Positions 2,835 through 25,098 of a DNA stretch of 64,000 nt are shown piece by piece. A model generated the notes under the pieces. That model searched no databases, was not told the DNA's origin, and saw nothing but the letters and a program-made list of their open reading frames with translations. The stretch is from NCBI GenBank assembly GCA_015233405.1, contig JADFXT010000001.1, positions 18,238 through 82,237 on the forward strand, given 5' to 3'. The DNA is from Candidatus Omnitrophota bacterium. GTDB lineage: Bacteria; Omnitrophota; Gorgyraeia; Zapsychrales; Zapsychraceae. Both the position numbers and the translations under genes were made by a program. The first letter of the stretch is position 1; each line of letters starts with the position of its first letter.

Positions 2835-2931
2835 GTCATCCCCGCAATTTTTAGGCGGGGATCCACAAGGGTTGAAGACATGGTTTCCCGACCTGTCTGC
2901 CGACAGGCAGGCAGAAGATTTCGGGAATGAC
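2835..2931 (+). repeat. MITE/REP-like two-hairpin repeat, copy A
   Basis: GTCATCCCCGCAATTTTTAGGCGGGGATCC hairpin ... GGTTTCCCG..CGGGAATGAC hairpin; near-identical to copy at 7436-7531. Confidence 0.85.
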
Positions 2932-2985
2932 AGCAGTGAAAAAGGAATTATCAGTAGTTTTAGGACGAAAAAGAGGGGGCAATAA

Positions 2986-5900
2986 ATGTTTAGAGGGCAA
3001 GGCACAACAAGAAGTAACATACTAAAGACTATGAGTCTTATAGTCCTCTTTATTTTTATCCCTCAGACTTTATTCGCTCAAATCACTCTTCCAACGCCCG
3101 GGACCATGGTCACGACCAGCGCGTCGTTTGTCCCGCCGATGCTCAAAGGGATGAAGGTTGATTTAAAACAGCCGTTTCAATTTGATTTTATTCTCGATAC
3201 CGGAAATTCTAATTTACAGGACGATGATCTAAAAGATGAATCCAATAAGCTCATCCGCTATTTTCTTTCGTCCTTGACCATCCCGGAAAAAGATTTGTGG
3301 GTCAACTTGTCTCCGTATGAGAAAAACCGTATTATTCCCGACGAGTTCGGCACAACGGAAATGGGCCGCGACTTATTGGCGCAGGATTATATCCTTAAAC
3401 AGATAACAGCTTCGCTCATGTATCCGGAAAACGCAACCGGCAAGGCGTTTTGGCAGAAGGTTTATAAAAAAGCCTATGACCTTTACGGCACGACCGATAT
3501 CCCGACGGACACGTTTAATAAGGTGTGGATCGTTCCGGATAAGGCTGTTGTGTATGAGAATCCGACTCCCAAATCCGGAGAGGCAACGGTATTTGTGGTC
3601 GAGGCGAAGTTGAAGGTGATGCTCGAGGAGGATTATTTTGCGACATCGAATACTGTAGGGGCGGGGTTTCCCCGCCATGAGGATAAAGGGCGCGGGAACC
3701 GCGCCCCTACGGCAATAATCAAAGAGGTCATTATTCCTATTTTGGAAAAAGAAGTCAATGAGGGCGCGAATTTCGCGCAACTGCGTCAGGTGTATTATTC
3801 GCTCATTCTTGCTAAGTGGTATAAGGATAGCCTCAAAGAAAGTATCTTAAATCGCAAATATTCCGACCAGAAAAAGGTTGATGGCGTTGACCTGGCCGGT
3901 AAAAAGGATAAACAAGAAATTTATGAGCAGTATCTTAAGGCGTTTAAGAAGGGCGCGTTTAATTACATCAAAGAGGAATACGATCCAACGACGCAGGCGC
4001 TCATACCCCGCAAATATTTCTCGGGCGGGGCGAATTTTAAAATGGAGAAGCCGATTGAAAAGACAAAATTTTTCCCGAGAGTCATGGGTAATGTGGTCGG
4101 AAAGTTAAAAGAAATCGCAGGTGGTTTTAAAAAATGGATTTTATCGCCGAGGCTCAAAGATGCAGCGATGGTGGTAGCAACCGTTGCAACATTAGTCGTG
4201 CATAATGGAGAAAAAAATGAAGAATTCGATCCTGGTGAGGCTGTAAGACCCGTCGCTGCGGTTGTCGATCAAGCAATGGCTGTAGCGGAAGGAGTTAAGG
4301 CAGCTAAGCCGAATGAAACAGCTTTAAGAGAGGGTTTCAAGTTTCCTTATCTAGGCAAAGCCCCACGGGGTTTTATTATGGGAGGCACCACTAGCAATAC
4401 TCCAAGCGAAAATACTAAAGTCAACAATGCCATGATGAATGTTAAAACAGCAGGAAGCCAAGTTCTAAATGTTTTAGGAAACTTTATTAATCCTGACTAT
4501 GTTCGGCAATTTATTTTCGTAGTGACGGGAAGTTTGTCACTTTTAAGTCCCCTGCCATATGATCCTGGTCCTGAGAAGGACTCAAAGAATTGGAACATGA
4601 AACCTGCTATTACAAGTGACCATGCCATGATGAGCGTTAAGTCGGCCATCGGTGTGCTGGCGATGATGTATATGCTTGCTGGATTGGCTATGCCATCATT
4701 CGCTAATACGCCGGGAAATTTGATTAACCCATCGAGTCTGACTGCGCAAGCGCCCCAAACACGTCAGGCCGCGCCGGTTTCTATTTCCATCGACCAGCTT
4801 AAGAATAAAAATGGCATGATATCGGTCAGGGTCATTCCTCATTCTGAGGTTTATCAAGAATATGAAAAAACACTTTTTGCCTTACAAAGCTGGGCTAGAG
4901 ATAATAATTATCAGGAAGTCCGTGATTTAGGGAATTATATTTTGTTCGTCAATAAAGAGGCCGGGATTTCCATCACATTTGAAACCCGCGAGGGCAATAG
5001 CGATAATCAGAATGCGAACCAACAATTGATCAGGCAGGAAGTCAGAGAATTTCAAACAAAAAATAATCAAGCAACGATTGTTTTAAGTGCCGATGGAACA
5101 ACTTCGGAAATATCAACTGCTGATAATCTTTATTTTGCTTCCGGAATGACGGAAAGCCCGGTTATTGTCATCCCTAATAATGTCGATAGCAAGGTCCTTG
5201 ATAAAATTCGAGCCGCGCATCCGAAGGCGACGATTCTTCAGGCGGATGGTGGCGTCCTGATGGATTTTCTTAAACTTCTTCCGTATATTTCTCAGAATGG
5301 CGCGTTAAGTACGAAAAACACTTCATTCTCCGTCGCTGATACATCCAAATCAGCAAATCCTATGAATGCCGGTACAACCGCAATCCTTTTGGCATTACTG
5401 GGCGGCGGTATTGGCGGAGGAATAAGATTTGTGGGAAGGTCCAAGACGCGGTCAAATAATTCGCAGAGTTTTAATGTCAATTTGAGCGGGAGCCCTTCAA
5501 CCAGTAATCCGGGCATAGCAAAGAAAGCACCGAGATATAATGAGAAAGGCGAAGAGATCATTGGTGACTTCGCCATGATGACGAATAATCAGACAACAAA
5601 AATCCCAGCCGCTACCAGCGCAGGAAGGCTCACGCACCTTCAGAAAAAAATGATTGATGCCCTGGCTAAACAAAGACCGGACAAAGGCCAAGAGGAACCC
5701 ATTTATATCGCCGATATCGGATTCGGAGGAATGTCGACCGTGTTTGATTTAGCAAAAGAACTTAGCAGCCAAGGTTTTAAGAATGTTATTTTCTACGGAA
5801 TGGATTACCGTGCTGAAGTTGTTAAAGGCGCGCAAGATTTTGTATCCAAGCAAGGAAACATCGACGGAATAAGCCGTTTTCAATTTGTTAACGGCAGTTT

Positions 5901-6684
5901 TGAAGCTCTTCAGGACAAGGGGCAGTTTGATCTTATCGTAACGTCGAATACCCTGATGTGGTATGACAATGGGACGGATGCGGTCCAGAAATATCGTAAA
6001 AACATGCAACAAGCCCTTAAAGAAAACGGTATGGCGATCGAAGCAACAGGCGGAGGGGAAAAATTTTCTATTGGATATGTTCAGTGGAATAAAAATAATG
6101 TTACTGAAAGAGGGATCATTGACCCCCAGGGGACAGTATCCAGGAGTAATGCTATGATTCAAGAAGAGAGTGTTGAATCAATACAAAAATCCATTGGGGA
6201 AATTTTTCCTATTTTAAAAGATAGCAATAATTTGTCGGCTATTGCTGCTGTTGTCAAAGAACTTCGCGGAAATAATGTCGAAACTCGTCCAGATAAGCTT
6301 GTTAAGTGGATGAAAACAGCCCTATCTTTAGATTTAAACTGTTTAGAAAGCGAACTAGAGTCTAAGTTAGGGATCCAGATGAATGACGTTAACCTTTTTA
6401 AACTTCTCTATGCCGGGCATACAACAGAAGAACGCCTCAACAAAGACAACGCTCCTTTAGCCAATCCTGGTGGTATTGATTTTAATCCGAACCGTCTAGA
6501 GCTTGATAAACAAGGCGCGCATAATGATTTTGAAATGCCGACCAATCCCGCGGACATGGAAAACATCCAGATCAATGGCCTTGTGCCGGTTATTATGAAA
6601 ATCTCGCCGGTCACGAACCTGCCGCTTCTTCTTGGAGCGAATCAAAATAGCGAAACAACCAGTCCGTTACAAGCAGGTTCTTAG
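2986..6684 (+). CDS. Large secreted protein, paralog 1 (signal peptide; N-domain shared with 14975-19825; internal signal-peptide-like segment; putative class I SAM-methyltransferase-like module; conserved C-terminal GGIDxNP domain)
   Basis: RBS AGAGGGGG before ATG. N-region (from ~aa 60 to ~aa 400) aligns with 14975-19825 (DLWVNL..GRDLLAQDY..KVWIVP.KAVVYENP); the first ~60 aa are not shared. MTase-like IADIGFGGMS...FDLIVTSNTLMW. C-term PGGIDFNPNRLELDKQG. Confidence 0.7.
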   Translation: MFRGQGTTRSNILKTMSLIVLFIFIPQTLFAQITLPTPGTMVTTSASFVPPMLKGMKVDLKQPFQFDFILDTGNSNLQDDDLKDESNKLIRYFLSSLTIPEKDLWVNLSPYEKNRIIPDEFGTTEMGRDLLAQDYILKQITASLMYPENATGKAFWQKVYKKAYDLYGTTDIPTDTFNKVWIVPDKAVVYENPTPKSGEATVFVVEAKLKVMLEEDYFATSNTVGAGFPRHEDKGRGNRAPTAIIKEVIIPILEKEVNEGANFAQLRQVYYSLILAKWYKDSLKESILNRKYSDQKKVDGVDLAGKKDKQEIYEQYLKAFKKGAFNYIKEEYDPTTQALIPRKYFSGGANFKMEKPIEKTKFFPRVMGNVVGKLKEIAGGFKKWILSPRLKDAAMVVATVATLVVHNGEKNEEFDPGEAVRPVAAVVDQAMAVAEGVKAAKPNETALREGFKFPYLGKAPRGFIMGGTTSNTPSENTKVNNAMMNVKTAGSQVLNVLGNFINPDYVRQFIFVVTGSLSLLSPLPYDPGPEKDSKNWNMKPAITSDHAMMSVKSAIGVLAMMYMLAGLAMPSFANTPGNLINPSSLTAQAPQTRQAAPVSISIDQLKNKNGMISVRVIPHSEVYQEYEKTLFALQSWARDNNYQEVRDLGNYILFVNKEAGISITFETREGNSDNQNANQQLIRQEVREFQTKNNQATIVLSADGTTSEISTADNLYFASGMTESPVIVIPNNVDSKVLDKIRAAHPKATILQADGGVLMDFLKLLPYISQNGALSTKNTSFSVADTSKSANPMNAGTTAILLALLGGGIGGGIRFVGRSKTRSNNSQSFNVNLSGSPSTSNPGIAKKAPRYNEKGEEIIGDFAMMTNNQTTKIPAATSAGRLTHLQKKMIDALAKQRPDKGQEEPIYIADIGFGGMSTVFDLAKELSSQGFKNVIFYGMDYRAEVVKGAQDFVSKQGNIDGISRFQFVNGSFEALQDKGQFDLIVTSNTLMWYDNGTDAVQKYRKNMQQALKENGMAIEATGGGEKFSIGYVQWNKNNVTERGIIDPQGTVSRSNAMIQEESVESIQKSIGEIFPILKDSNNLSAIAAVVKELRGNNVETRPDKLVKWMKTALSLDLNCLESELESKLGIQMNDVNLFKLLYAGHTTEERLNKDNAPLANPGGIDFNPNRLELDKQGAHNDFEMPTNPADMENIQINGLVPVIMKISPVTNLPLLLGANQNSETTSPLQAGS
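3655..3710 (+). repeat. GC-rich nested palindromic element inserted in frame within CDS
   Basis: GTAGGGGC[GCGGGGTTTCCCCGC]CATGAGGATAAA[GGGCGCGGGAACCGCGCCC]CTAC; sits at the site homologous to the MITE insertion in the paralog. Confidence 0.6.
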
Positions 6685-6735
6685 CTTTTCTTTCCTATTT
6701 GACGCAAAAATTATTTTATGATACTTTAGTGGGTC

Positions 6736-7425
6736 ATGATTAAAGATAATGTAAATAATATTAATAATAAAATTGCCTCTATCTGTGCGCACCTTAGACG
6801 AGACCCCAAAGAGATTGTCCTTGTTGGGGTTACGAAATACGCGGACGTTCCATCAATTAAAGAAGCGGTAGACGCCGGCATTATGCATATCGGCGAAAAT
6901 TACGTCCAAGATGCTGTCAAAAAACTTGAAGAACTTGATACTCTGGGCGTTAAAGTTACAAAGCATTTTATCGGACATTTGCAGACCAACAAAGTTAAGC
7001 TGGTCCTTCCCGTCTTTGATTTGATCCAATCCGTGGACAGCTTCAAGCTCGCCCAAGAAATTGAGAAACAAGCCTTGAAAATCGGCAAAAGGGTTGATAT
7101 TCTGGTTCAAGTCAATATTTCAGGAGAGAAACAAAAATTCGGCGCGGATAAATTGTCCGGCCATCAGTTGGTTAAGGATATTTCAGCGTTAAAAAATATT
7201 CGCATTCTTGGACTTATGACCATGGCGCCCGAGATCGAGGATAAAGATATCATCCGCGAATGTTTTAAGGGCTTACGGTTATTGCGTGATCAGATCGTCG
7301 AGGAAATGGGCCGGCGGGATCATATGGACATGAAATATTTATCCATGGGCATGAGCGCGGATTATGAAATCGCCCTTGAAGAAGGTTCGAATATGGTAAG
7401 AATCGGAAGGGCGATTTTTAAATAA
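6736..7425 (+). CDS. yggS: YggS-family pyridoxal-phosphate homeostasis protein
   Basis: HFIGHLQTNKVK hallmark; ~229 aa alanine-racemase-N-like fold. Confidence 0.85.
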   Translation: MIKDNVNNINNKIASICAHLRRDPKEIVLVGVTKYADVPSIKEAVDAGIMHIGENYVQDAVKKLEELDTLGVKVTKHFIGHLQTNKVKLVLPVFDLIQSVDSFKLAQEIEKQALKIGKRVDILVQVNISGEKQKFGADKLSGHQLVKDISALKNIRILGLMTMAPEIEDKDIIRECFKGLRLLRDQIVEEMGRRDHMDMKYLSMGMSADYEIALEEGSNMVRIGRAIFK

Positions 7426-7435
7426 GTTTTTTGTT

Positions 7436-7531
7436 GTCATCCCCGCAATTTTTAGGCGGGGATCCACAAGATTTGAAAACATGGATTCCCGACCTGTCTG
7501 CCGACAGGCAGGCAAAAGATTTCGGCAATGA
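7436..7531 (+). repeat. MITE/REP-like repeat, copy B
   Basis: GTCATCCCCGCAATTTTTAGGCGGGGATCCACAAG...GGATTCCCGACCTGTCTGCCGACAGGCAGGCAAAAGATTTCGGCAATGAC. Confidence 0.85.
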
Positions 7532-7548
7532 CCTGAAGTGGGGTTGGG

Positions 7549-8370
7549 ATGAAAAGAATGGAAGCATTGACCACTTTTAATATTATGAAAACTAAAATCG
7601 GTTTTATCGGTTGTGGAAATATGGGGCAGGCGATCCTTAAAGGAGTCGTGAAGGATTCCTCTATTCTCGTCGCTGAGAAGGACGCGTCCCGCGTCGCACT
7701 TCTTAAGAAAAAATATAAAGTGGCTTGTGCGGATGTGCCGACCGTGGTTAAGAAATCTAATATTATTATTCTTGCGGTCAAGCCGCAGGATTTTGGCCAA
7801 ATCCTCGACGAGATAAAGGGATCTTTAACAAAGAATCATCTGGTGATTTCTATCGCCGCAGGCATTACGTGTTCGTATATCGAAGAAAGATTAGGGGATG
7901 TCAGAGTTGTCCGCACTATGCCGAACTTGCCGGCGCAGGTTGGTGTGGGCATGACCGCTCTTTGTAAGGGGAAGTTTGCCAAAGATAATGATGTGAAACA
8001 ATCCCAGCGGATCTTTGATGCGATTGGGAAAACCGTTATTGTCGACGAAAAATGGATGAACGCTGTGACGGCCGTCTCCGGCAGCGGGCCGGCGTATGTG
8101 TTTTTATTCGTCGAATGTATGATGAATGCGGCAAAAGCCTTAGGATTCCCGGACGATGTTTCTAAGGATTTGGTCTATCAGACGCTTAAAGGAAGCGTCA
8201 AACTTTTGGAAGAGTCCAGCGACGGGGCAGAAACATTGCGTTTAAAGGTGACGTCCAAAGGCGGAACAACGGAAGCAGCCATCAAAGAATTTTTTGGCGC
8301 AAAGTTAGATGAGATTTTTAAGACGGCCTTGAAAGCAGCGGAAACAAGGGCGAGAGAATTGGCAAAATAA
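7549..8370 (+). CDS. proC: Pyrroline-5-carboxylate reductase
   Basis: GFIGCGNMGQAIL NADP-binding N-term; KGGTTEAAI C-term motif. Confidence 0.85.
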   Translation: MKRMEALTTFNIMKTKIGFIGCGNMGQAILKGVVKDSSILVAEKDASRVALLKKKYKVACADVPTVVKKSNIIILAVKPQDFGQILDEIKGSLTKNHLVISIAAGITCSYIEERLGDVRVVRTMPNLPAQVGVGMTALCKGKFAKDNDVKQSQRIFDAIGKTVIVDEKWMNAVTAVSGSGPAYVFLFVECMMNAAKALGFPDDVSKDLVYQTLKGSVKLLEESSDGAETLRLKVTSKGGTTEAAIKEFFGAKLDEIFKTALKAAETRARELAK

Positions 8371-8382
8371 AAGGAGGCAGGC

Positions 8383-9243
8383 ATGTCCAAAGTCGGGATC
8401 ATCGGCGGGAGCGGGCTTTATGAAATGGAAGGATTTGAAAATAAGGAAGAAGTGGTCATCATCGATACGCCGTTCGGCCAGCCTTCAGGGAATCTGATCA
8501 CCGGGACATTTCAGGGGATTGATGTGGTCTTTATTGCGCGCCACGGCAAAGGCCATCGTTTGTCGCCGAGCCAAATCAACTATCGCGCGAACATTTTTGA
8601 GATGAAACGCATGGGCGTCAGCGCAATTCTATCTGTGTCCGCGGTCGGAAGCCTCAAAGAACATTTAAAGCCGATGGATTTTGTCGTGCCGGACCAATTT
8701 CTAGACCGCACGACCCTTCGGCAAGCGAGTTTTTTTGTGGACGGAATTGTCGGGCACGTAAGTTTTGCCGACCCTGTGGATAAACAACTTGCGAAAATTC
8801 TTGTCGAAGCTGCGAAACAGGCCGGGTCAACGGTCCATGAAGGCGGGACGTATGTCAATATGGAGGGCCCGCAATTCTCGACGAAAGCCGAATCGAATTT
8901 GTATCGCAGCTGGGGAATGGATATTATCGGTATGACCAATATGACAGAAGCCAAATTGGCGCGTGAGGCGGAGATCGCTTACGCTACGCTTGCCGCGGTG
9001 ACGGATTATGACTGCTGGCATCCGGACCATGATTCTGTTACGGTCGAGATGATTCTTAACAACTTGAATAAAAATGTTGCAAAAGCCAAAGAAATCCTTA
9101 GAATTGCTATACCAAAAGTCGGGAAGATTGAAAAGTTTGAGGCGAACGATGCTTTAAAATATGCGCTTGTGACAAGCGGTTCTGTTATTCCCGAGGACAT
9201 TAAAAAGCGATACCAGGTGTTGATTGGAAAATATATAAAATAG
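8383..9243 (+). CDS. mtnP: S-methyl-5'-thioadenosine phosphorylase
   Basis: KVGIIGGSGL; PSxINYRANI; TDYDCW, collinear with MTAP family. Confidence 0.85.
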   Translation: MSKVGIIGGSGLYEMEGFENKEEVVIIDTPFGQPSGNLITGTFQGIDVVFIARHGKGHRLSPSQINYRANIFEMKRMGVSAILSVSAVGSLKEHLKPMDFVVPDQFLDRTTLRQASFFVDGIVGHVSFADPVDKQLAKILVEAAKQAGSTVHEGGTYVNMEGPQFSTKAESNLYRSWGMDIIGMTNMTEAKLAREAEIAYATLAAVTDYDCWHPDHDSVTVEMILNNLNKNVAKAKEILRIAIPKVGKIEKFEANDALKYALVTSGSVIPEDIKKRYQVLIGKYIK

Positions 9244-9257
9244 ACTACTCCGTCACT

Positions 9258-9350
9258 GTCATTCCCGCGAAAGCGGGAATCCAGGATATGTTGTAAATTC
9301 CAGCGCAAAACCGAAAGGAGACACTGGATCCCCGCATGCGCGGGGATGAC
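9258..9350 (-). repeat. MITE/REP-like repeat, copy C (inverted orientation)
   Basis: GTCATTCCCGCGAAAGCGGGAATCC ... GGATCCCCGCATGCGCGGGGATGAC. Confidence 0.8.
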
Positions 9351-9361
9351 ATAATTTCTTT

Positions 9362-12190: not shown

Positions 12191-12554
12191 GAAAAAATTA
12201 GAACATTATAAGAAACTTCTTTTGAAACTCAAAGAAAGTCTTATGCATGATGTTAAGAACATGGCTCATAATACAGATAATCAGGGAAATGAGTCTAGCG
12301 ATGTCTCCGGCCATGTAATGCATATGGCGGATGTGGCGACGGACATGTATGACAAGGAATTTAATTTAGGATTAGCTTCTCACGACAGGCAGCTTTTGCA
12401 AAAGATTGACGATGCGCTCTTGCGTATCGAAAGAGGCACGTATGGTTTTTGCTTAGGCAGCGGCAAACCCATTTCTCAAGCCCGTCTTGAAGCGATTCCT
12501 TATGTAGAATATTGCTTAGAATACCAGGAAGAACTTGAAAGAAAAAAGAAATAA
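12168..12554 (+). CDS. DksA/TraR-family C4 zinc-finger protein
   Basis: C-terminal C-x2-C...C-x2-C-like [21 protein letters not shown]; position between ileS and lspA. Confidence 0.6.
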
Positions 12555-13030: not shown

Positions 13031-13050
13031 CAGAGTAACACTTCATTATT

Positions 13051-13161
13051 GTCATCCCCGAAATTTTTTGTCGGGGATCCACGATTTTAAAAAGCTGGAT
13101 TCCCGCTTTGGTTCGCCCTTCGCTTACCATCCCGCTTTTGGGCGGGATCGCCGGGAATGAC
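13051..13161 (+). repeat. MITE/REP-like repeat, copy D (extended second hairpin)
   Basis: GTCATCCCCGAAATTTTTTGTCGGGGATCC ... GGATTCCCGC...GGGCGGGATCGCCGGGAATGAC. Confidence 0.8.
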
Positions 13162-13186
13162 AGCAAAAAAGGCGAAAGATTAAACG

Positions 13187-13954: not shown

Positions 13955-14857
13955 GTGGCTCTTTATTCTTTTAAAATTAGTTCAGAAAATCAACACCAGC
14001 GACTTGACGTTTTCCTGACCCAGCATTTAACCGACATTCCTTCGCGCGCATTTGTCCAGAAGCTCATTGAGCATGGCCATGTCCGCGTCAACGAAACAAA
14101 AGTCAAGTCACATTACAAACTTCAAATAGGGGAAGACGTCCTCGTCGAAATCCCTCAGGATTTTATCACGCCGCAATATATCGCGCCGGAAGATATTGCG
14201 TTGGATATTTTTTATGAAGACGAATTTCTGTTGGTCATCAACAAGCCCATTGGCATGACGGTTCATCCGGCCCAGGGCTGTTATACGGGAACATTGGTCA
14301 ACGCGCTACTTCATTATTCCAATCAACTTTCGGACGTGAATGATAAAATGCGCCCCGGCATTGTGCATCGGTTAGACAAGGAAACCTCCGGTCTAATGCT
14401 CGTCGCGAAAGATAATATTACGCACACCAAGCTCGCCAAGCAATTCGCACGTCATGAAGTCAAGAAGCGTTACGTTGCTTTAGTCGAGGGGGAAATGCCT
14501 TTTGACGAGGGGAAAGTGGATGTTCCTATCGGCAAGCATCCGTTTCATCACGAGAAGAAAGCTGTATCATTCGCAGATTCTTCCAAAGAAGCCGTGACAT
14601 TTTATCACGTCCTTAAGCGTTTTAACGGCAAGACCTTGGTCGCTTTATATCCTAAGACCGGTCGCACGCATCAATTGCGTGTCCATATGAAACATCTCGG
14701 CCATCCTATTCTCGGCGATGACAAGTATGGAAATAAAAGTTCGTTCCCGCGCTTGGCCCTTCACGCCCAGTCCATCAGTTTTATCCATCCTCAAACGAAA
14801 AAGTATATCGAATTCAGTTTGATGATCCCTCCAGAATTTTCTGATAGTTCTAAATAA
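13955..14857 (+). CDS. rluD: RluA-family 23S rRNA pseudouridine synthase (RluD-like)
   Basis: N-terminal S4 domain; catalytic HRLDKETSGLMLVAK. Confidence 0.85.
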   Translation: MALYSFKISSENQHQRLDVFLTQHLTDIPSRAFVQKLIEHGHVRVNETKVKSHYKLQIGEDVLVEIPQDFITPQYIAPEDIALDIFYEDEFLLVINKPIGMTVHPAQGCYTGTLVNALLHYSNQLSDVNDKMRPGIVHRLDKETSGLMLVAKDNITHTKLAKQFARHEVKKRYVALVEGEMPFDEGKVDVPIGKHPFHHEKKAVSFADSSKEAVTFYHVLKRFNGKTLVALYPKTGRTHQLRVHMKHLGHPILGDDKYGNKSSFPRLALHAQSISFIHPQTKKYIEFSLMIPPEFSDSSK

Positions 14858-14974: not shown

Positions 14975-17900
14975 GTGTTGCAATTGTATAGAAATAAAAG
15001 AGTTATAAGATATCAAAAACCTTTCATTTGGGGATTGATTTTCTTTTTTTCGCTTTCCAATATTCCTTTTCCTCAAAAATCTTTCGCTCAAAATATTCCA
15101 GCGGCAGTTAATGTTTTGCCTGCAGCCGCGCAAGCGTTCCAGCCGGTTTTAATCAAGGGAATCAAAGCTTATAAAAATAATCCGCTAAAGTTCGATTTCA
15201 TTTTAGACAAAGGCGAAGCCTTGGGACAAAATGACCCCGCTCGTCCGACGGGAGAGCAAGGGTTACAATTAAAACAAGAAGCCAGCCGACTGATCAAATA
15301 TTTTTTGGCATCTTTGACCGTACCCGAGGAGGATTTGTGGGTGAACTTAAATCCTAAAGAACCGAATAGAATTGTTCCCGGAAAATTTGGCGAGACACAA
15401 ATGGGCCGTGATCTATTGGCGCAGGATTATTTGCTTAAGCAGATTACAAGCGCTTTAATGAATCCGGACGGCGAAACAGGGAAGAAGTTTTGGGAAAGAA
15501 TCTACAGGGAGGTTTATGCAAAGTACGGCTCGACGGACATCCCCGTCGATACGCTCAACAAGGTTTGGATCGTACCAGCAAAGGCCGTTGTGTATGAGAA
15601 TCCGGCGAAAGATGCGGCACAAGCGTCAGCCTTCGTCGTAGAGGCGCGGCTTAAGGTGATGCTGGAGGAAGAATACGAAGCGCTCAAACCGAGCGCGGAG
15701 TCCCGAGCTTCTGCCCCGTTGTCATCCCCGCAATCTTTAAGCGGGGATCCAGGGGTACATAACAAAGCAACTGCTATGGATTCCCGCCTTCGCGGGAATG
15801 ACAAAAAAGGAGATGGGAATGACATGAAGAATGGGCGTGACATGAAGAATGGGAGTGATATAAGTTCTTCAATCATTAAAGAAATCATCATCCCCGAGAT
15901 AGAGAAGGAAGTCAATACCAGCAAAAGTTTTTCGCCGCTGCGCCAGGTTTACAACAGTCTTATCCTTGCCACATGGTATAAGCGGAAACTCAAAGAGAGT
16001 ATTCTGGGGAAGGTTTATTTAAACAAGAACAAAACCATGGGCGTTGATATCGTCGACAAACAAGAAAAACTAAAGATCTATGAGAATTATTTGGCAGCGT
16101 TTAAGAAAGGCACGTGCAATCTCATCAAGGAAGAATATGACCCGGCGACAAAAGAGATTATTCCAAGAAAATATTTCACCGGCGGTGCGCGGATGGCTGT
16201 GGACAAGGCTATGGTGGTAACAAACAAACTGCCTAAGGGATTCATGAAAGCCTTGGGTGTATTATTTCTTTGTTCAAGTGGATTATTTGTTGAGGAAACT
16301 TTTGCGCAAGCGCCGGTAGATTCCCAGCAGGTATCCTTGGCCTCGCAAAAAGAGCATTGGATGAGCCTCGCGAAGACAAATTATGCCGAGGTTTTTCAGC
16401 ATTCTGGGGAATTTATTAATGAACCTTGGGCCATGGACGTTCTTAAGGCCGCAATTTTAGCCACGCCGAACGGCCCATTTTATACGGGTTCCACAGCTGC
16501 TATGGAAAACTTCGATTATTATTTAAAATATGAAAAAGGATGGGAATTCTTTAGATGGATGATGCAAAGATATCCTGAATACGGTTATAGTTATATGGGT
16601 CTGTTTAGAGATAAACCTTATGCTTTAAGAGTGTATGAGCTATTGGCAGAATTGGATCCCGTGGGTATGGTTGATAGGTTGACTTTAAGTGAATATTATG
16701 GCAGGCCTGTTGAAATTGAATCCCCTTACGAAATACCGGAAAACGTTTTGAAACAGATTTTAGCTGGAAGCTCTTCAGATCGGGTCAAGTTGGTCCTTGC
16801 GATCCTACGGCTTTCTATACCACGCGACGAAAAAAAATGGTTGGCACGATTGGCGCCGGATATTTCCAGTGGGAAGTTGACCTTAGAAGAGGCCCAAATC
16901 ATAGTCAAGGATGCGAAAAAATATTTTGAGCGGGCCGTTTCAGTTTATCAATCTCAACCGCCGGAAATAAAAGCGGCCACCTCATGGAGTTTTTTCTATG
17001 AGATAAAGGATTTTTATCTTGGAGAACATTTATCTCCTCTTTATAAGTCTGACAAGAAAAAATTTATGGAAGAAATTCAGGGTCTTGATGCGTACCGGAT
17101 TTATCTTATTTTGGAAAGCTTCAGAGGTAAAGCTTCTTCTAAATTGGAGTCTTTTGATGCGATATTCCCCGTCTTTCTGCAAAAAGTTAAGGCGGAAAAA
17201 TTCAGTATTTCTCAAGCCTCAAGCAGTGCGTATTCTTTGATGGAATTCTTTTCTGATATCAATAGGAACCATCAGGGAAGGAATTTGATGGAGAGTCTTT
17301 CTAAAGAAGAACGGTTGGCCGTTATTCAAAAGATGTCCGAAGCGTTGAATTCCAGGGAGCTTTTCTTTTATTCAATTGATAGAATGAAATACACAATAAC
17401 CATCATGAGTTTTATAGATGATAATTTAGACCTTTTTGACAAGAACGCTCAGGATTATTTAAAACAGGTCAGGGCCAAGCTTCATATTGTTATGGTCGAC
17501 TTGATCAAGAAAGACATCGATGCGCTTGCGGTAGTTGATCAAATAAGGGATCCCGAGTTGATTAATTTGGTCAGAGACATGGCTTTCCAGAAGGTGAAGG
17601 AGCCCCGTTTTAACTCGTCGTTTTTGCTAACCTTTGACCACTATATCAGTCAACCCTGGGGGCAACAGATTCTATTAGAAATCTTGACGAGCGATCCAGC
17701 GAGAGCTCTTAACAATATGGACTTATTAAAGAAAAAATACCCTATTGATTACAATAACCCGCTCATAATGACTTTTAATCAAATCGCGAGTTTGAAAATA
17801 AAACAGTCTGAAAAAGAAAGATTGGCATTGCTTCTTGATGAGCTGGTTAATAAGCGCTTGTCATTAGAAGAAGCGCAGGAATTAATCAAAGATGATTTCT

Positions 17901-19825
17901 TATTGATGCGCCATTTAATCGGAATTTTATCCCGTGATTCTTTAATCGGGCGTGAAGCCATAAAAAGCTTTCTTTCTGATTTTTATCTTAAGTTTGTCCG
18001 GGAAATCAACAAATTACATGAACAGCCGGATTCCGTGCGTTTTAAATCCGTGGAAAAAGCCACGCCGGAGGATTTGTATAAGATCATCGTCTTTGGCGAG
18101 GATGAAGTTTACACGTCGACGTTTAACGGGCTTTTTACCCGGATGATAGAACGTATGAAAGCCCAGGGCATTTCCGGCGAGTCCGGCGAGGAGCTTTTAA
18201 ATTCTGCTGGCCGTTATAAAGTCCGGCCTTTCTTTAGATTGATGGCGAGTTTTAATCGGCTCAATGAATTTCTGGCGACCATGAGCCCTAAGGAGCAGGA
18301 CAATCTTATCGCATATGTTGTGCAGAGTATTGAGAAAGAAAAATATTTCTTAAAAGAAGCTGCTGTTGTGGCGGATATTTTTAGTGTGGTCAAAGACCCG
18401 AAGGTCCTTAAAAAAATTCAGATATTGATCAAGCAGGAATTCCTGCGCGTTCAAAAAGACAAGAATGAGCAAGGCATGGTTCTCTACGGATTGTTAAACG
18501 GCTTGTTTGGTGCTCGGGCTGTTATTGATGGACAATGGTTTAAAGATATGGCGAATCAATTTGGGCTTCCGGATATTTCTGTCTTGTCCCAAAAAACACT
18601 TTTTAATCAGCGGTATCAGAATATTCAACGGCATTTCTTTTATGATGATGAGGACGGTAAGTTATCTTTTGCGGATTTTCTGCAGACTTATCAGAACGAT
18701 TCCAGGAATTGGGAAATCAAAACCTTTCCGACCTATGTCCAGGTTACGTCCAAACACGGGTTTCCGATCGTTATGTATGCCAACCTTCCTGACAGCGTCG
18801 AGAATGGAAATGCCGCTATTGAGGGTGAGTTGTTAATGAAAGGAAACAAACCCCAGGTGATCGTTCATCATGGGCATAGTTATCACGTCGATAAAACCAT
18901 AGAGAAGATCGATTCCGCGGTGACGTTCGTTTATCTGGGCAGTTGTGGTGGATTCGGCCATGTGAGTGAGATTCTTAATTTGTCTCCCAATGCACAAATT
19001 TTTTCCACGAAAGGGACGGGAACGGCCGTTGTCAACGGGCCTTTATTTAAAATAATTAATGACGAGATCCGGCAAAAAGGGATGGTAGATTGGCGAAGTT
19101 TGTGGGTCAAGGCTGAACACAAATTGGGTAATGTTTCGGAATTGCGCAACTACATGTCGCCGGACCGGAACTTAAGCGTCCTATTTTTAAAAGCCTACAA
19201 CAAGAAATTGGAAGAGTTGAAGAATAAATCTTCCATGCCAGCGGATACGCTGCAGCATTCGTCTGTGAACAATCCGGATAGACAGTGGTTTGAAAGAATA
19301 CAACAAAGACGTAATGAATTGAACGCGTCTCTGCAAAATGTTTTGGCAACTAATGGTGATGTCCTGGTCGGACAAGCACGGGAACGTATTTTAAGCAAAG
19401 AGGACGCTCAGCGCCTTAAGAAGGCCCAGCGTCAAGTGGATTACATTCTGGCGGAGCAAGTTGAGCTTAACAGGCTTTTGACTGAGGCACGAAATAATAT
19501 CATTCAACAAAGACAAGCGCCACAGCAGGAAGAAAATCAATTTATGTATGCTTTGGCCCGTCGGGTTTCTCAAGAAGCCGGGAATAATGTTTTTGCTTTA
19601 GAGCACACAGATGCCGCTATGATTACACAAAAAACTCCGGGTGGGATTGATCTTAATCCGCAAAAGATGAATCTTGATATTCAAGGCAAAGGCGAGGATT
19701 TTACAATCCCAGACGGATTTGAGTATCTTTTAAAGGAAGATATCGCAGGTTTTAGCCCTGTCATTTTTGATATTACTCCGATATCTCCTGATAAAATCAC
19801 AGGAATTTTACAGAATTTTCACTAA
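14975..19825 (+). CDS. Large secreted protein, paralog 2 (signal peptide; shared N-domain; in-frame MITE insertion; internal signal-peptide-like segment; C-terminal GGIDxNP domain)
   Basis: RBS AGAGGGGGAG; N-terminal ~400 aa collinear with 2986-6684; C-term PGGIDLNPQKMNLDIQGKGEDF. Confidence 0.7.
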   Translation: MLQLYRNKRVIRYQKPFIWGLIFFFSLSNIPFPQKSFAQNIPAAVNVLPAAAQAFQPVLIKGIKAYKNNPLKFDFILDKGEALGQNDPARPTGEQGLQLKQEASRLIKYFLASLTVPEEDLWVNLNPKEPNRIVPGKFGETQMGRDLLAQDYLLKQITSALMNPDGETGKKFWERIYREVYAKYGSTDIPVDTLNKVWIVPAKAVVYENPAKDAAQASAFVVEARLKVMLEEEYEALKPSAESRASAPLSSPQSLSGDPGVHNKATAMDSRLRGNDKKGDGNDMKNGRDMKNGSDISSSIIKEIIIPEIEKEVNTSKSFSPLRQVYNSLILATWYKRKLKESILGKVYLNKNKTMGVDIVDKQEKLKIYENYLAAFKKGTCNLIKEEYDPATKEIIPRKYFTGGARMAVDKAMVVTNKLPKGFMKALGVLFLCSSGLFVEETFAQAPVDSQQVSLASQKEHWMSLAKTNYAEVFQHSGEFINEPWAMDVLKAAILATPNGPFYTGSTAAMENFDYYLKYEKGWEFFRWMMQRYPEYGYSYMGLFRDKPYALRVYELLAELDPVGMVDRLTLSEYYGRPVEIESPYEIPENVLKQILAGSSSDRVKLVLAILRLSIPRDEKKWLARLAPDISSGKLTLEEAQIIVKDAKKYFERAVSVYQSQPPEIKAATSWSFFYEIKDFYLGEHLSPLYKSDKKKFMEEIQGLDAYRIYLILESFRGKASSKLESFDAIFPVFLQKVKAEKFSISQASSSAYSLMEFFSDINRNHQGRNLMESLSKEERLAVIQKMSEALNSRELFFYSIDRMKYTITIMSFIDDNLDLFDKNAQDYLKQVRAKLHIVMVDLIKKDIDALAVVDQIRDPELINLVRDMAFQKVKEPRFNSSFLLTFDHYISQPWGQQILLEILTSDPARALNNMDLLKKKYPIDYNNPLIMTFNQIASLKIKQSEKERLALLLDELVNKRLSLEEAQELIKDDFLLMRHLIGILSRDSLIGREAIKSFLSDFYLKFVREINKLHEQPDSVRFKSVEKATPEDLYKIIVFGEDEVYTSTFNGLFTRMIERMKAQGISGESGEELLNSAGRYKVRPFFRLMASFNRLNEFLATMSPKEQDNLIAYVVQSIEKEKYFLKEAAVVADIFSVVKDPKVLKKIQILIKQEFLRVQKDKNEQGMVLYGLLNGLFGARAVIDGQWFKDMANQFGLPDISVLSQKTLFNQRYQNIQRHFFYDDEDGKLSFADFLQTYQNDSRNWEIKTFPTYVQVTSKHGFPIVMYANLPDSVENGNAAIEGELLMKGNKPQVIVHHGHSYHVDKTIEKIDSAVTFVYLGSCGGFGHVSEILNLSPNAQIFSTKGTGTAVVNGPLFKIINDEIRQKGMVDWRSLWVKAEHKLGNVSELRNYMSPDRNLSVLFLKAYNKKLEELKNKSSMPADTLQHSSVNNPDRQWFERIQQRRNELNASLQNVLATNGDVLVGQARERILSKEDAQRLKKAQRQVDYILAEQVELNRLLTEARNNIIQQRQAPQQEENQFMYALARRVSQEAGNNVFALEHTDAAMITQKTPGGIDLNPQKMNLDIQGKGEDFTIPDGFEYLLKEDIAGFSPVIFDITPISPDKITGILQNFH
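15721..15868 (+). repeat. MITE copy E inserted in frame in CDS, plus 18-bp tandem repeats derived from its 3' end
   Basis: GTCATCCCCGCAATCTTTAAGCGGGGATCC...GGATTCCCGCCTTCGCGGGAATGAC, then GGGAATGACATGAAGAAT / GGGCGTGACATGAAGAAT / GGGAGTGATATAAGT (translated GNDMKN-GRDMKN-GSDIS). Confidence 0.8.
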
Positions 19826-20029: not shown

Positions 20030-21712
20030 ATGCAAATAGGACTATCGTTAGTTAAAAACGGGTTAATTTCCCTAGAGCAATTGGATTTGATTTTAGCAGA
20101 GCAGCAAAAAACCCAGGAGCGCATTGGCGATATCGCCATCAGGCTCGGTTTCGTTAACCCTCATCAACTCGCTCCTTTCATCGCCGAGCATTTCAGCCTT
20201 CCTTTCGTAGAACTCAAAAAAAATTATAAAGCCATCAAGCCCGAGATCATTAGCCTGATCCCGGAAGATTTGGCTTATCGTTTTGTCGTCATTCCTCTGG
20301 AGATGGAAAATAATGCCTTGGTCCTCGCCGTCGCGGATCCTTTAAATATTGTCGCCGATGACACGCTCAAATTAAAGACGGGATTGAAGATCAAGCACAA
20401 GGTGGCCTCCGCCGAGGATATTATTGAAGCCATTGATTATTGTTACCATCAACTTCCACGGCTTAAAGAGCATATCAATCATTTTATTGAACTTGAGCCG
20501 CAATCGGCGGTGGAGAAAGATTTTGAGAAATTGCGCATTGAAGCCAATGACCCGCCGGTCGTCAAATATGTCCATCATCTGATCGTCCAGGCCGTTAACA
20601 GCGATGCGAGCGACATCCATATTCAGCCTAAACAAGATAAGGTCCGGTTGTGTTTCCGCGTCGACGGGATTTTGTATGATTTCGATCCGCCGCCGAAGAG
20701 CATGCTCGCGGGCATCATCACGCGTATTAAGATTTTGGCGGGGCTCGATATCGCCGAACGGCGCTTGCCGCAGGATGGACGTTTTAAGATGGTCGTCGGA
20801 GCGGTGGAAATCGATGTGCGAACCTCGTGTTTTCCGACGATTTACGGCGAGAATATTGTTATGAGAATTTTAAATACCTCCAGCCCTTTATTGGGATTGG
20901 AACAGCTAGGATTTTCTCAAGAGGACGTTGTGAAATTCCGGGAATTGATTCACAGACCGTATGGTTTGATCCTCGTCACCGGTCCGACGGGAAGTGGAAA
21001 GACAACAACCCTTTATACCGCTTTAAATGAAATTAAATCCTCGGATAAAAATATGATCACACTTGAGGACCCCGTCGAGTATAGGTTGCCGTTCATTCAG
21101 CAATCCCAGATGAATTCTGTCATAGGATTTGATTTTGCCCGAGGATTACGGTCGGTCTTACGCCAGGACCCGGATGTCATCATGGTCGGAGAAATCCGTG
21201 ACAAAGAAACGGCCGAGATCGCTATTCATGCGTCGTTGACGGGACACTTGGTTTTCTCTACACTGCACACCAATGATGCCACGGGGGCGACGGTGCGCCT
21301 GATCAATATGGGCGTGGAGCCGTTTTTGATCACCTCGTCATTGATCGGCGTTTTGGCCCAGAGGTTGATCCGTTCCATCTGCCATAATTGCCGTAAAGAA
21401 TATTTGGTCAACGAGGAATCGCTGGAGAGATTATCTTTGGATGAAAAGCTGCATAAGTTTTTCAAGGGCCAAGGATGCTCGAATTGTTTAAACAGCGGAT
21501 ATCGAGGACGGTCGGCCATTTTTGAATTGCTTACGGTCAACGATGCGGTCCGTAGCCTGATCCTCAAACGTTCGTCGAGTGAAGAGATCAAGCGTCAGGC
21601 CCAGGCCGACGGAATGAAGACGCTGCGCGAAAGTGGTATTGAGAAAATCAAGATGGGGATAACCACGGTCAGCGAAGTTTTACGTGTCACCCAGGAAGCG
21701 GAGAGCATTTAG
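20030..21712 (+). CDS. pilB: Type IV pilus/T2SS assembly ATPase (PilB/GspE family) with N-terminal MshEN-type domain
   Basis: Walker A GPTGSGKTTT; Asp box; His box; tetracysteine CHNC..CSNC; N-term QIGLSLVKNGLISLEQLDLILAEQ matches MshEN c-di-GMP motif. Confidence 0.9.
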   Translation: MQIGLSLVKNGLISLEQLDLILAEQQKTQERIGDIAIRLGFVNPHQLAPFIAEHFSLPFVELKKNYKAIKPEIISLIPEDLAYRFVVIPLEMENNALVLAVADPLNIVADDTLKLKTGLKIKHKVASAEDIIEAIDYCYHQLPRLKEHINHFIELEPQSAVEKDFEKLRIEANDPPVVKYVHHLIVQAVNSDASDIHIQPKQDKVRLCFRVDGILYDFDPPPKSMLAGIITRIKILAGLDIAERRLPQDGRFKMVVGAVEIDVRTSCFPTIYGENIVMRILNTSSPLLGLEQLGFSQEDVVKFRELIHRPYGLILVTGPTGSGKTTTLYTALNEIKSSDKNMITLEDPVEYRLPFIQQSQMNSVIGFDFARGLRSVLRQDPDVIMVGEIRDKETAEIAIHASLTGHLVFSTLHTNDATGATVRLINMGVEPFLITSSLIGVLAQRLIRSICHNCRKEYLVNEESLERLSLDEKLHKFFKGQGCSNCLNSGYRGRSAIFELLTVNDAVRSLILKRSSSEEIKRQAQADGMKTLRESGIEKIKMGITTVSEVLRVTQEAESI

Positions 21713-21744
21713 TTTTTTGTCATCCACGAATGCTTTTTTGATTT

Positions 21745-21872
21745 TGTCATCCCCGCAATTTTTAGGCGGGGATCCAGGGTAAAAGTTATTTCAGCAAGCA
21801 TCAAAAATTTGAAAAGCATTTATTGGATTCCCAATCATTTCTGGATAAAAAATCAAGGAAGTTGGGAATGAC
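21745..21872 (+). repeat. MITE/REP-like repeat, copy F (degenerate partial copy just upstream at ~21719)
   Basis: GTCATCCCCGCAATTTTTAGGCGGGGATCCAGGG...GGATTCCCAATCATTTCTGG...GTTGGGAATGAC. Confidence 0.8.
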
Positions 21873-21957
21873 ATAATGTTTGTGCAAGTGAAACATGGGG
21901 TTTCCCCTCCAACTTGTGGGGAGGGAAAATCGATGTCGAATATAGAGAGGAATTTTT

Positions 21958-23172
21958 TTGATGGAATTTCAATACGTCGCCCTTGATAAAAACGGCCAAC
22001 ACGTCAGTGCCACCGCAACCGCGGATTCCGTCGCGGCCCTCATTAGCCGTTTAAAAAACAAAGGATTCATTCCTTTGCGCGTTTCCGAAACAAGGCAAGC
22101 AAGCGCGCAGATTTCTAAAATAAAAAAGATTTTTATCCCGCAGATCACATCCAAAGAGCTGGTCGTCTTTACCCGTCAGCTGGCCACGATCCTTAATTCC
22201 GGTGTTCTGTTGACCGACGCTATCATGACGATCGCCGAGGATATGGACAATCAATATTTTTGCGATATCCTCAAAGACGTTTGGACGGATATTAACGGCG
22301 GCAAAACTCTTTCACTAGCTTTATCTAAGTATCCCATTTTTCCGACGACATATACCGCTGTTGTCAAATCCGGTGAAGAGGTCGGGAATCTCGGCAACAC
22401 GCTGATGGGCCTGGCAAAATATCTTGAGGATTCTGAACGCACGAAAGAAAAAATTGTCAACGCCATGCGTTATCCGACATTTCTTTTTCTATTCATGCTT
22501 CTTATTGTGTCGGCCATGGTCATATTTCTTATTCCTAAATTTAGCCGCCTGTTTTCAAATGCGGGAGTCGAACTGCCTTTATTGACGAGGATCGTGGTCG
22601 GTTTTAGCGATTTTTGTCTCAAGAATGCCGCACTCGAGATCCTTGGCATCACAGGTTTAGGGTTTCTGGTCTGGCATCTTTTAAAGAATCCGGAGATCCG
22701 ATATAAATTTGATTACTATATTTTGAAGCTTCCTATCATCGGGAATTTGGCGCTTAAGGCGCTCATTTCCCAATTTTGCCGGACCTTCGGCATTTTGATT
22801 TCCGGCGGCGTCAGCATGGTCGCGGCCTTAGCGGTCTCAAGCGACGTCATGAAAAATTTGTATTTAAATAATATTATCGACCAGGTCAGAGCAAAAGTCA
22901 TTTCCGGAGAGGCTTTAAGCGATGCCATGAAAGCGCATAAAATGATGCCGCGGATCATGGTCAAAATGATCGCTGTCGGCGAGAAATCCGGGAAACTCGA
23001 TGAAATGTTGACCAAGACCTCGGATTATTATGACCGGGACCTGGAATCCGCGCTAGATGGTTTTACGTCTTTGCTCGAGCCGGTCTTTGTGGTCTTGATC
23101 GGCGGGATCGTTCTGATTGTCGCCTTAGCACTTTATTTACCGATCTTTAAATTGTCGGCGACAGCGCACTAA
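21958..23172 (+). CDS. pilC: Type IV pilus/T2SS inner-membrane platform protein (PilC/GspF family)
   Basis: Two T2SSF repeats, three TM, 404 aa, collinear with 40592-41800. Confidence 0.9.
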   Translation: MMEFQYVALDKNGQHVSATATADSVAALISRLKNKGFIPLRVSETRQASAQISKIKKIFIPQITSKELVVFTRQLATILNSGVLLTDAIMTIAEDMDNQYFCDILKDVWTDINGGKTLSLALSKYPIFPTTYTAVVKSGEEVGNLGNTLMGLAKYLEDSERTKEKIVNAMRYPTFLFLFMLLIVSAMVIFLIPKFSRLFSNAGVELPLLTRIVVGFSDFCLKNAALEILGITGLGFLVWHLLKNPEIRYKFDYYILKLPIIGNLALKALISQFCRTFGILISGGVSMVAALAVSSDVMKNLYLNNIIDQVRAKVISGEALSDAMKAHKMMPRIMVKMIAVGEKSGKLDEMLTKTSDYYDRDLESALDGFTSLLEPVFVVLIGGIVLIVALALYLPIFKLSATAH

Positions 23173-23206
23173 GAAAGTTCACTGTCATGAACGCTGCTTT
23201 GTACTT

Positions 23207-23390
23207 GTCATCCCCGCGAAGGCGGGGATCCAGGATACAGGGTGAACTCCGGCGTGGATAAGGAACAAGCAGATAAAAAAATGACGTCGGGAATGGAATA
23301 TAGCATTGGTTGAGAACGGTAATCTAAAATAGATAGATTTATTTGATAATCTGATTTAATTCTTTGGATCCCCGCCTTCGCGGGGATCAC
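23207..23390 (+). repeat. Composite MITE-like element with perfect ~24-bp terminal inverted repeats, copy G
   Basis: GTCATCCCCGCGAAGGCGGGGATCC (23207-23231) ... GGATCCCCGCCTTCGCGGGGATCAC (23366-23390); internal GGGAATGG fragment. Confidence 0.75.
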
Positions 23391-25097: not shown

Positions 25098-25098
25098 C

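Follow-up and report, generated by a model that had tools for sequence, protein, structure and literature searches.

The window analysed here is a stretch of 64,000 nucleotides (nt) from an uncultured Omnitrophota bacterium (contig JADFXT010000001.1), and its first 24 kb carry a family of short paired hairpins. Seven such two-hairpin elements, comprising 14 hairpins, lie between 2.8 and 23.4 kb (Table 1), beside a c-di-GMP riboswitch leader and the genes yggS, proC, mtnP, ileS, lspA, lgt, pilB, pilC and pilin. An earlier reading of the sequence, referred to below as the original prediction, had placed seven copies of an unknown repeat here, likened to transposable elements of the miniature inverted-repeat kind (MITEs) or repetitive extragenic palindromes (REPs), with none in 24-64 kb. 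All seven copies are present and the gene-flanking gaps are as assigned; motif and hairpin scans gave nothing convincing in 24-64 kb. The bounds were refined by the ends TGTCAT...ATGACA, which gives element sizes of 84-188 nt, and the terminal inverted repeats TGTCATYCCCGC ... GCGGGRATGACA are present at all seven. A minus-strand open reading frame (ORF), 9006-9308, is spurious, as had been proposed, and reads ...LDSRFRGNDS... across one hairpin of element 3.

A loose scan for the hairpin core recovered 13 hairpins in 2.8-23.4 kb, the degenerate right hairpin of element 1 being the fourteenth. Six of the nine intergenic gaps in 1-24 kb are occupied, compared with none of the 14 in 24-64 kb (Fisher p=8e-4). 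Over the whole window the motif GTCATYCCCG, with at most one mismatch, has 31 matches against 6.8 ± 2.6 in shuffles, and GGATYCCCG has 14 against 1.3. A repeat finder recovered the hairpin family as its groups D2, D8, D12, I1, I5, I7 and I8.

Structure of the paired hairpins

The left hairpin, whose loop measures 4 or 9 nt, has the form TGTC-ATCCCCGC-loop-GCGGGGAT-CCA, and the right hairpin, in the opposite orientation, the form GG-ATTCCCGC-loop-GCGGGAAT-GACA; a spacer of 15-132 nt lies between them. In this layout there is one site per strand, with the GTC heads outward, and in element 3 the two hairpin types are swapped. The GTC head is kept in 13 of the 14 hairpins (the exception, 23365-23393, has GTG), and a C follows the palindrome in all 14. 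The hairpins are high in G+C and the spacers low. The predicted two-hairpin architecture is thus found at all seven places, although the right hairpins of elements 1, 2, 4 and 6 keep their outer stem around loops of 27-45 nt that hold nested hairpins. Similarly, the ends are inverted, but each of the supposed imperfect terminal repeats is a whole hairpin site with an orientation of its own, and the two sites face opposite ways.

Every element folds as single-stranded DNA (ssDNA) beyond its shuffled controls (z -2.8 to -5.4), and isolated hairpins with 8-bp stems reach -9.7 and -11.3 kcal/mol (z -4.7 and -4.2). The stem variants of the window are compensated (GC/GC, GA/TC, AA/TT), and over all loci 303 perfect hairpins fall into 20 arm variants, each of them exactly compensated.

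Similarity over the full length is confined to elements 1 and 2 (94% over 98 nt), where it stops at the TGTCAT/ATGAC ends; the remaining spacers are unrelated to each other and to all of the external loci that were fetched. This bears on whether the family could be a classical MITE, that is, a deletion derivative of an insertion sequence (IS) moved in trans by a DDE transposase recognising the TGTCATYCCCGC ends. The inverted ends, the size, the intergenic position, the strong folding, the near identity of elements 1 and 2 at two loci and the emptiness of equivalent gaps in relatives would all suit a MITE, and Correia-type MITEs are likewise small and strongly folding, with terminal inverted repeats, and lie intergenically within or before operons. 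Unlike these, however, the window elements have no TA or other target duplication, no uniform interior and no DDE parent: target-site duplications were looked for and the best flanking direct repeat was 0-3 nt at shifted offsets, no transposase was found in the window, and the copies share hairpins rather than interiors. When whole elements were compared by BLAST with all fetched loci there was no match of 45 nt or longer, and on this ground the uniform-MITE model is rejected. Each supposed terminal repeat is by itself a whole hairpin with an orientation, found unpaired in other genomes as well, and the sole gene remnant inside an element belongs to a GIY-YIG nuclease (below). A MITE origin is therefore quite improbable, and the mosaic of conserved hairpins and unrelated spacers resembles the Neisseria intergenic mosaic elements (NIMEs) and the bacterial interspersed mosaic elements (BIMEs) more than a uniform MITE family.

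Table 1. Hairpin elements and associated features in the window (positions counted from its first nucleotide; z, folding as ssDNA relative to shuffled controls)
Feature	Position	Strand	Sequence and structure	Context	z
Element 1	2834..2932			between c-di-GMP riboswitch with its terminator and start codon at 2986	-4.6
Element 1, left hairpin	2834-2866	+	TGTC-ATCCCCGC-AATTTTTAG-GCGGGGAT-CCAC	followed by 15-nt spacer	
Element 1, right hairpin	2882-2932	-	stem ATTCCCGA/TCGGGAAA, one mismatch; 29-nt loop with nested hairpin		
Element 2	7435..7533			fills yggS/proC gap (7425-7549)	-4.2
Element 2, left hairpin	7435-7467	+			
Element 2, right hairpin	7483-7533	-	one stem mismatch; nested loop as in element 1		
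Element 3	9257..9351		inverted arrangement	mtnP/ileS gap	-5.4
Element 3, left hairpin	9257-9284	+	TGTCATTCCCGCGAAAGCGGGAATCCAG; 27/28 identity to Neisseria NTS, exact dRS3 match		
Element 3, right hairpin	9324-9351	-	TGTCATCCCCGCGCATGCGGGGATCCAG		
Element 4	13050..13162			lspA/lgt gap	-3.5
Element 4, left hairpin	13050-13082	+	compensated stem variant ATCCCCGA/TCGGGGAT		
Element 4, right hairpin	13097-13162	-	stem ATTCCCG/CGGGAAT; 45-nt loop with second SRM-like hairpin ATCCCGC-TTTTGG-GCGGGAT		
Element 5	15720..15803		translated SSPQSLSGDPGVHNKATAMDSRLRGND	intragenic, in frame in ORF 14975-19825	-3.9
Element 5, left hairpin	15720-15752	+	loop AATCTTTAA		
Element 5, right hairpin	15776-15803	-	exact dRS3 match		
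Tandem 18-nt repeats	15804..15860	+	3' half-sites GGGAATGACA / GGGCGTGACA / GGGAGTGATA (repeat family D17)	in frame, directly after element 5	
Half-hairpin	21719..21744	+	GTCATCCACGAATGCTTTTTTGATTTT; 5' arm and loop	abuts element 6	
Element 6	21745..21873		47-nt spacer	pilB/pilC gap	-2.8
Element 6, left hairpin	21745-21777	+			
Element 6, right hairpin	21825-21873	-	doubly compensated stem ATTCCCAA/TTGGGAAT; 27-nt loop		
Element 7	23206..23393		decayed hairpin-ssn-hairpin cassette; arms 97% complementary (family I5)	pilC/pilin gap	
Element 7, left hairpin	23206-23233	+	TGTCATCCCCGCGAAGGCGGGGATCCAG		
ssn 3' remnant	23252..23359	+	AWIRNKQIKK*RREWNIALVENGNLK*IDLFDNLI, then TAA stop	spacer of element 7	
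Element 7, right hairpin	23365-23393	-	TGTGATCCCCGCGAAGGCGGGGATCCAA; head GTC mutated to GTG		

Relation to the published Ssn hairpins

Three nested motifs are described by Chenal et al. (2025, Nat Commun; PMC11893778), namely the Neisseria Transformation Sequence (NTS), dRS3 and the Ssn-related motif (SRM). According to that paper, the NTS, CGTCATTCCCGCGMAVGCGGGAATCYRG, contains dRS3, a 20-bp repeat ATTCCCNNNNNNNNGGGAAT with the pattern ATTCCCN8GGGAAT (PMC1797815; PMC11893778), and the SRM has the pattern HGTCWYN(0-2)YYVSBRHN(0-5)WNVSBRGN(0-2)RNCYNB (PMC11893778). Eight of the 14 window hairpins match the SRM pattern, compared with 0.11 ± 0.34 (maximum 2) in 100 dinucleotide shuffles, and the other six are variants with expanded loops or single substitutions. 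Only the hairpin at 9257-9284 agrees with the strict NTS (at most one mismatch), the rest being SRM-level relatives. Exact dRS3 sequences lie at 9261-9280 and 15780-15799; ATCCCC-type and expanded-loop hairpins do not fit that pattern. Judged by sequence, the window hairpins very probably belong to the SRM family. As this family and its nuclease were published in 2025, the repeats are not a new kind of element, and the idea of an unknown MITE/REP family has to be given up: the hairpins match the published NTS/SRM, for which the partner protein is an ssDNA nuclease of the GIY-YIG type and neither a DDE transposase nor a REP-associated tyrosine transposase. No follow-up literature on Ssn or SRM was found.

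In the work of Chenal et al., the nuclease SsnA, a single-domain GIY-YIG protein of ∼94-95 amino acids (aa) (cd10448), is described as binding and cutting the hairpin as ssDNA only, and on one strand only; by mutagenesis in Neisseria, cutting needs 3 nt 5' of the palindrome and binding needs the C after it (PMC11893778). Ssn homologues of other Neisseria and of Wolbachia are said there to behave like SsnA, an SRM lies near 71% of ssnA homologues and on both sides in 42%, and the clustering of NTS is non-random. In meningococcus the Ssn system lowers transformation by NTS-containing DNA, and in Neisseria cleavage by Ssn during transformation shortens recombination tracts (PMC11893778).

The window elements share with the published motifs the hairpin sequence, the oriented GTC head, the trailing C and a non-random clustering that agrees with that of NTS; in element 7 there is also what looks like the inverted bracketing of a ∼95-aa GIY-YIG gene, here as a 35-codon remnant. 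They differ in host, since the paper deals with RefSeq representative genomes and its main text has no mention of Omnitrophota or of metagenomes; in the dominant variant, which has ATCCCCGC arms and a 9-nt loop; and in that no intact nuclease was seen in the window. That main text likewise describes no inverted pairs lacking a gene, no nested loops, no arrays of half-hairpins and no insertions in frame into coding sequence.

The layout of hairpin, variable spacer and hairpin is also that of the dRS3-RS-dRS3 units of NIMEs, and in both cases the spacers are unrelated between copies, high-G+C hairpins enclose low-G+C spacers, and copies lie beside pilus genes (PMC1797815). The window loci are, however, single pairs and never long arrays, their 15-132-nt spacers compare with an RS of 50-150 bp, most of their hairpins are of the ATCCCC variant and several right loops have grown to 27-45 nt; NIMEs were stated as not seen outside Neisseria (PMC1797815). 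Elements 1-6 are hairpin pairs that enclose no gene and whose spacers are unrelated, comparable to these units. Since dRS3 is a documented integration target, the hairpins might instead be targets of a recombinase, and the nested and half-hairpins do suggest events inside hairpins. Yet the window yielded no gene of a recombinase, a prophage or an IS110-type element, and no interrupted window hairpin flanks a large insert. Such secondary use of the sites would also leave their origin unexplained, and we regard it as very improbable.

REPs, with their doublet forms BIME and REPIN, have to be weighed in the same way, as palindromes that owe their spread to a RAYT (REP-associated tyrosine transposase, an IS200/IS605-like HUH enzyme). 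Inverted doublets, variable linkers, the lack of target duplication, intergenic position and clustering are features of the window elements too, both systems have a small dedicated ssDNA-hairpin enzyme encoded between two repeats, and the Ssn paper itself likens Ssn hairpins to REPs (PMC11893778). The fold of that enzyme, however, is HUH/Y1 in the one and GIY-YIG in the other, and the conserved head of the window hairpins is (T)GTC(A) rather than the GTAG tetranucleotide of REPs (PMC5896051). No Y1/HUH (RAYT) gene was found in the window, the sequence matches SRM/NTS, and the linked gene is of the GIY-YIG type, as a remnant here and at 19 of 32 external loci. With the GTAG head missing and no RAYT in the window, the REP-like label is as improbable as a MITE origin. 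The Coxiella elements QMITE1/2 were also considered, but no link to the family was drawn; QMITE2 is described as a GTAG-type REP, and the main text of its report holds no matching sequence (PMC5896051).

Distribution, nuclease genes and the remnant in element 7

The exact 30-nt left hairpin was found in two other Omnitrophota metagenome-assembled genomes (MAGs), in one Ignavibacteria MAG, in one unclassified MAG and on 13 metagenome contigs, and the same hairpins lie on >120 viral or prophage contigs. At one external locus (L124) the flanking protein is 44% identical to that of the window while a 33-nt hairpin is 100% identical. An inverted right-end hairpin lies 10-116 nt downstream of the left hairpin in 9 of the 19 assessable external copies, and the convergent pair is the commonest arrangement in at least 120 loci fetched irrespective of pairing (25 pairs, median spacer 53 nt). 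The family is therefore dispersed and crosses phylum boundaries, and the two-hairpin unit is a general feature of it rather than a local accident. To this extent the original prediction of a real, structured and dispersed palindromic family is borne out, and the elements do lie in gene-flanking gaps and resemble non-autonomous elements in their behaviour. The restriction of copies to the window that it had named as its counter-case is contradicted by identical hairpins on unrelated contigs and in unrelated phyla. Duplication within the stretch, or a chance likeness limited to it, would account for all copies lying within 21 kb; with motif counts far above shuffles, identical hairpins elsewhere and unrelated flanks, we give it hardly any weight.

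Viral and prophage loci fetched by the hairpin pattern alone (at least 120) contain small PF01541 genes bracketed by inverted hairpins. SRMs lie within 250 nt of 19 of 32 Ssn-like genes, most commonly with a (+) hairpin ∼14 nt before the start and a (-) hairpin 1-14 nt after the stop, and several of these flanking hairpins agree with window hairpins at 28/28 positions. Small Ssn-type nucleases are not represented by any NCBIfam model.

A fragment of such a gene is present in the window. Three protein probes all match 23252-23377, which is the spacer of element 7. What remains is the last ∼35 codons, the ∼60 N-terminal codons with the catalytic GIY-YIG motifs being missing, and the internal stops replace invariant tryptophans of the family (TGG to TGA, TGG to TAG). 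In tblastn the remnant scores 31.2 bits, compared with a maximum of 26.6 in 100 shuffled windows. It is the sole match in six frames to a protein hidden Markov model of 32 Ssn homologues (14.0 bits, positions 62-96/97; shuffle maximum 1.3), and also the best match to a DNA profile made from coding sequences only (E=0.009, 89 nt ungapped). From its stop to the right hairpin there are 6 nt, which is the register of intact cassettes. Because the remnant lies between the two hairpins and both its orientation and its register are those expected, element 7 is a decayed hairpin-ssn-hairpin cassette whose gene lacks its 5' two-thirds. The original prediction had counted it as one more copy; the hairpin pair is there, but the spacer holds a nuclease pseudogene. 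It had also allowed that the hairpins might be one side of a larger IS, and the hairpins of element 7 are indeed the two ends of a larger unit, although that unit is an ssn cassette. The data show the other elements to be clustered beside this remnant.

Two further arrangements were noted in the external loci. A fixed (-)(+) hairpin pair ∼26 nt apart lies upstream of many ssn genes (L076, L142-L145, L150, L152, L164), and a 20-29-nt spacing dominates the divergent pairs in loci sampled irrespective of pairing, which points to another conserved module in addition to the convergent pair. In L141 (7707-7882), the spacer of a composite element upstream of hpf holds another type of GTCAT-headed hairpin (…GATTCTTCGTCGCAGAAT… / …CTCAGAATGACA), suggesting that several SRM-like variants coexist and interleave in these genomes; the same locus has the complete form, TGTCATCCCCGAATGCTTTTATCGGGGATCC, of the variant seen as a half-hairpin at 21719-21744. 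An Ssn-profile match in L141 (5.2 bits) was rejected as false, as it lies in a ribosome hibernation factor gene.

Insertion, spread and the weight of the explanations

Equivalent gaps in the nearest relatives are short or empty of elements. Between pilB and pilC the window has 246 nt, whereas the two closest relatives by PilC (58% and 54% identical) have 3 and 14 nt, and the pilC/pilin gap is 313 nt compared with 105 nt in one of the PilC relatives. L177 had no SRM in 17.8 kb, and the PilC of the window is 100% identical to MBF0521447.1 of a Candidatus Omnitrophica MAG.

Element 5 gives a different view of insertion, as its site is a variable linker, flanked by two conserved blocks, in a large protein family specific to Omnitrophota. 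Some 110 of 120 homologues of ORF 14975-19825 (∼110/120) have a short linker without insert, and hairpin-derived peptides occur in the linker of the window protein, of L124/L126 and of P0002, P0019, P0081 and P0117. The inserts are read in at least three frames (SSPQSLSGDP, VIPAKAGI, SFPNAFVGNP) and are independent insertions, kept only where the protein tolerates them. The contigs of three insert-bearing homologues (L174-L176) have few SRMs and no ssn. The ORF encodes 1616 aa, of which the N-terminal ∼450 have no Pfam match; this N-terminal family has >1,500 database relatives, every organism-named match being from Omnitrophota, and is fused to varied C-terminal domains (kinase, methyltransferase, glycosyltransferase, phosphatase and others). 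The database includes PilC of the same MAG, yet it gave no 100% match to the ORF; the source record may therefore leave this gene uncalled or list it as a pseudogene.

Palindromic repeats inserted in frame and translated as extra peptide segments are also known as Rickettsia palindromic elements (PMC10969869). These are ∼150 bp long and occur in many unrelated genes, whereas inserts of the window type are concentrated in one linker of one paralogous family, and the likeness is one of behaviour only. Rickettsia is listed among the SRM-rich genera in the Ssn paper (PMC11893778). Nothing was found in the literature on the hairpin-derived peptide motifs.

The explanation that we consider probable is that the window elements are SRM sites of an Ssn-type nuclease, arranged as inverted pairs, which have spread from or with nuclease cassettes. 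The repeats are oriented hairpin sites of ∼28-33 nt, headed by GTC, with an 8-bp ATYCCCGC stem and a C behind it; they would serve as the recognition and cutting sites of the ssDNA nuclease, and their inverted pairing gives each strand a single site, at the unit's 5' edge. They would be recognised by an active Ssn, whose gene may lie elsewhere in the genome or may once have lain at 23.2 kb. The pairs would have arisen or spread from the cassettes by a process that depends on single strands and hairpins and does not duplicate the target. One cassette has decayed in place at 23.2 kb, and all gene-less pairs lie within 21 kb on one side of it. The presumed effect, by analogy with the shortened recombination tracts of Neisseria, would be that ssDNA, whether exposed or incoming, is cleaved at these loci.

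Formation of the hairpins in co-directional operon transcripts could be a side effect. A stronger version of this would have the hairpins act primarily at the RNA level, terminating, stabilising or undergoing processing in polycistronic transcripts and being selected for operon regulation. Six of the seven elements lie between co-directional genes, one lies in a riboswitch-controlled leader, and the hairpins are stable. Correia elements, for comparison, are cut by RNase III. Effects of MITEs on transcripts have also been reported (PMC10969869). However, transcription does not run from the hairpins into a T-tract, and a terminator scan of the + strand in 2500-14000 called no element hairpin, the flanks being CCAC/CCAG or GACAGC/GACAAA. 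The same hairpins occur on both strands, in coding sequence in several frames and at the flanks of nuclease genes, and the Ssn paper states that Neisseria SsnA does not act on RNA (PMC11893778). A primary role in RNA is thus unlikely; such a reading is compatible with that of nuclease sites and may describe a side effect of them.

Several points weigh against the nuclease-site explanation. The SRM pattern is permissive, and Ssn biochemistry concerns Neisseria and Wolbachia proteins only (PMC11893778). The remnant scores are modest in absolute terms (14 bits; DNA E=0.009), and a k-mer-limited database search with the repaired remnant peptide returned no candidates and was uninformative. Neither the six-frame Ssn profile nor tblastn found an intact ssn in the window, none was found in ∼190 kb of Omnitrophota-like and metagenome loci with the same hairpins, the 13 metagenome loci with the left hairpin have no GIY-YIG gene, and the left hairpin with the 9-nt loop lies beside ssn in none of 21 external loci and is absent from the viral contigs. 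The distance of the PilC relatives weakens the reading of their short gaps as empty sites. Simple copy-and-paste of a fixed element fails for most copies, since the spacers are unrelated between them, and the published cut site 5' of the palindrome does not explain the nested hairpins and half-hairpins seen here, which hint that something happens within the loops.

A more far-reaching proposal is that the hairpin-ssn-hairpin cassettes are autonomous mobile elements of an unrecognised class, mobilised by their GIY-YIG nuclease, and that the gene-less pairs are non-autonomous derivatives of them; such elements would spread between phyla, insert without target duplication and be absorbed in frame into proteins. 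We put this forward tentatively, as a possibility that we consider rather doubtful. If true, insertion, possibly into existing hairpin loops, would explain the nested and half-hairpins, and the window would show a dead local nuclease copy (element 7) with its offspring surviving within 21 kb.

The surroundings of the elements have features of their own. Element 1 lies between the terminator of a c-di-GMP-I-GGC riboswitch (2651-2731) and the start codon of a 1232-aa methyltransferase-domain protein, and a c-di-GMP-I riboswitch (42942-43029) lies upstream of a pilin gene cluster. The 64 kb hold three gene sets of the type IV pilus/type II secretion system kind (20030-28200, 36008-49900, 50066-54060), with three PilB/GspE ATPases, two PilC/GspF proteins, at least seven prepilin-type genes, PilMNO and a secretin. 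Two stand-alone MshEN-domain ORFs among these sets (36008-36466, 40124-40585) may bind c-di-GMP. The proximity of the hairpin elements to pilus genes (pilB, pilC, pilins) is suggestive. After the pilin gene, at 24017-24215, a long hairpin with 30-nt arms (90% complementary, 47 nt apart) is followed by ∼2.5 tandem 37-nt units (GGATTTCGATATTCGGATTTCGAGYTTTTTTACTCCT); this repeat is unrelated in sequence to the SRM hairpins and may be a terminator region or another repeat family.

What is new here is the host phylum, the variant with a 9-nt loop, a decaying cassette beside gene-less pairs, the recurrent in-frame insertion into a linker, and the identity of hairpins across phyla. For annotation, a practical consequence is that these hairpins yield spurious ORFs and odd peptides (SRFRGND, VIPAKAGI, SSPQSLSGDP and the WIPAFAGMT type), and that they can lengthen real proteins. 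The role of Ssn and its hairpins outside Neisseria, and the mobility of hairpin-ssn-hairpin units, are left open in the Ssn paper. The window extends the family to the Omnitrophota, a little-studied uncultured phylum, with 30-nt hairpins identical between phyla, and offers a natural series from a decaying nuclease cassette to the gene-less pairs clustered beside it. The contrasts between occupied and empty gaps and the repeated in-frame insertions argue for mobility, and the question of whether these units are mobile is thereby made more tractable.

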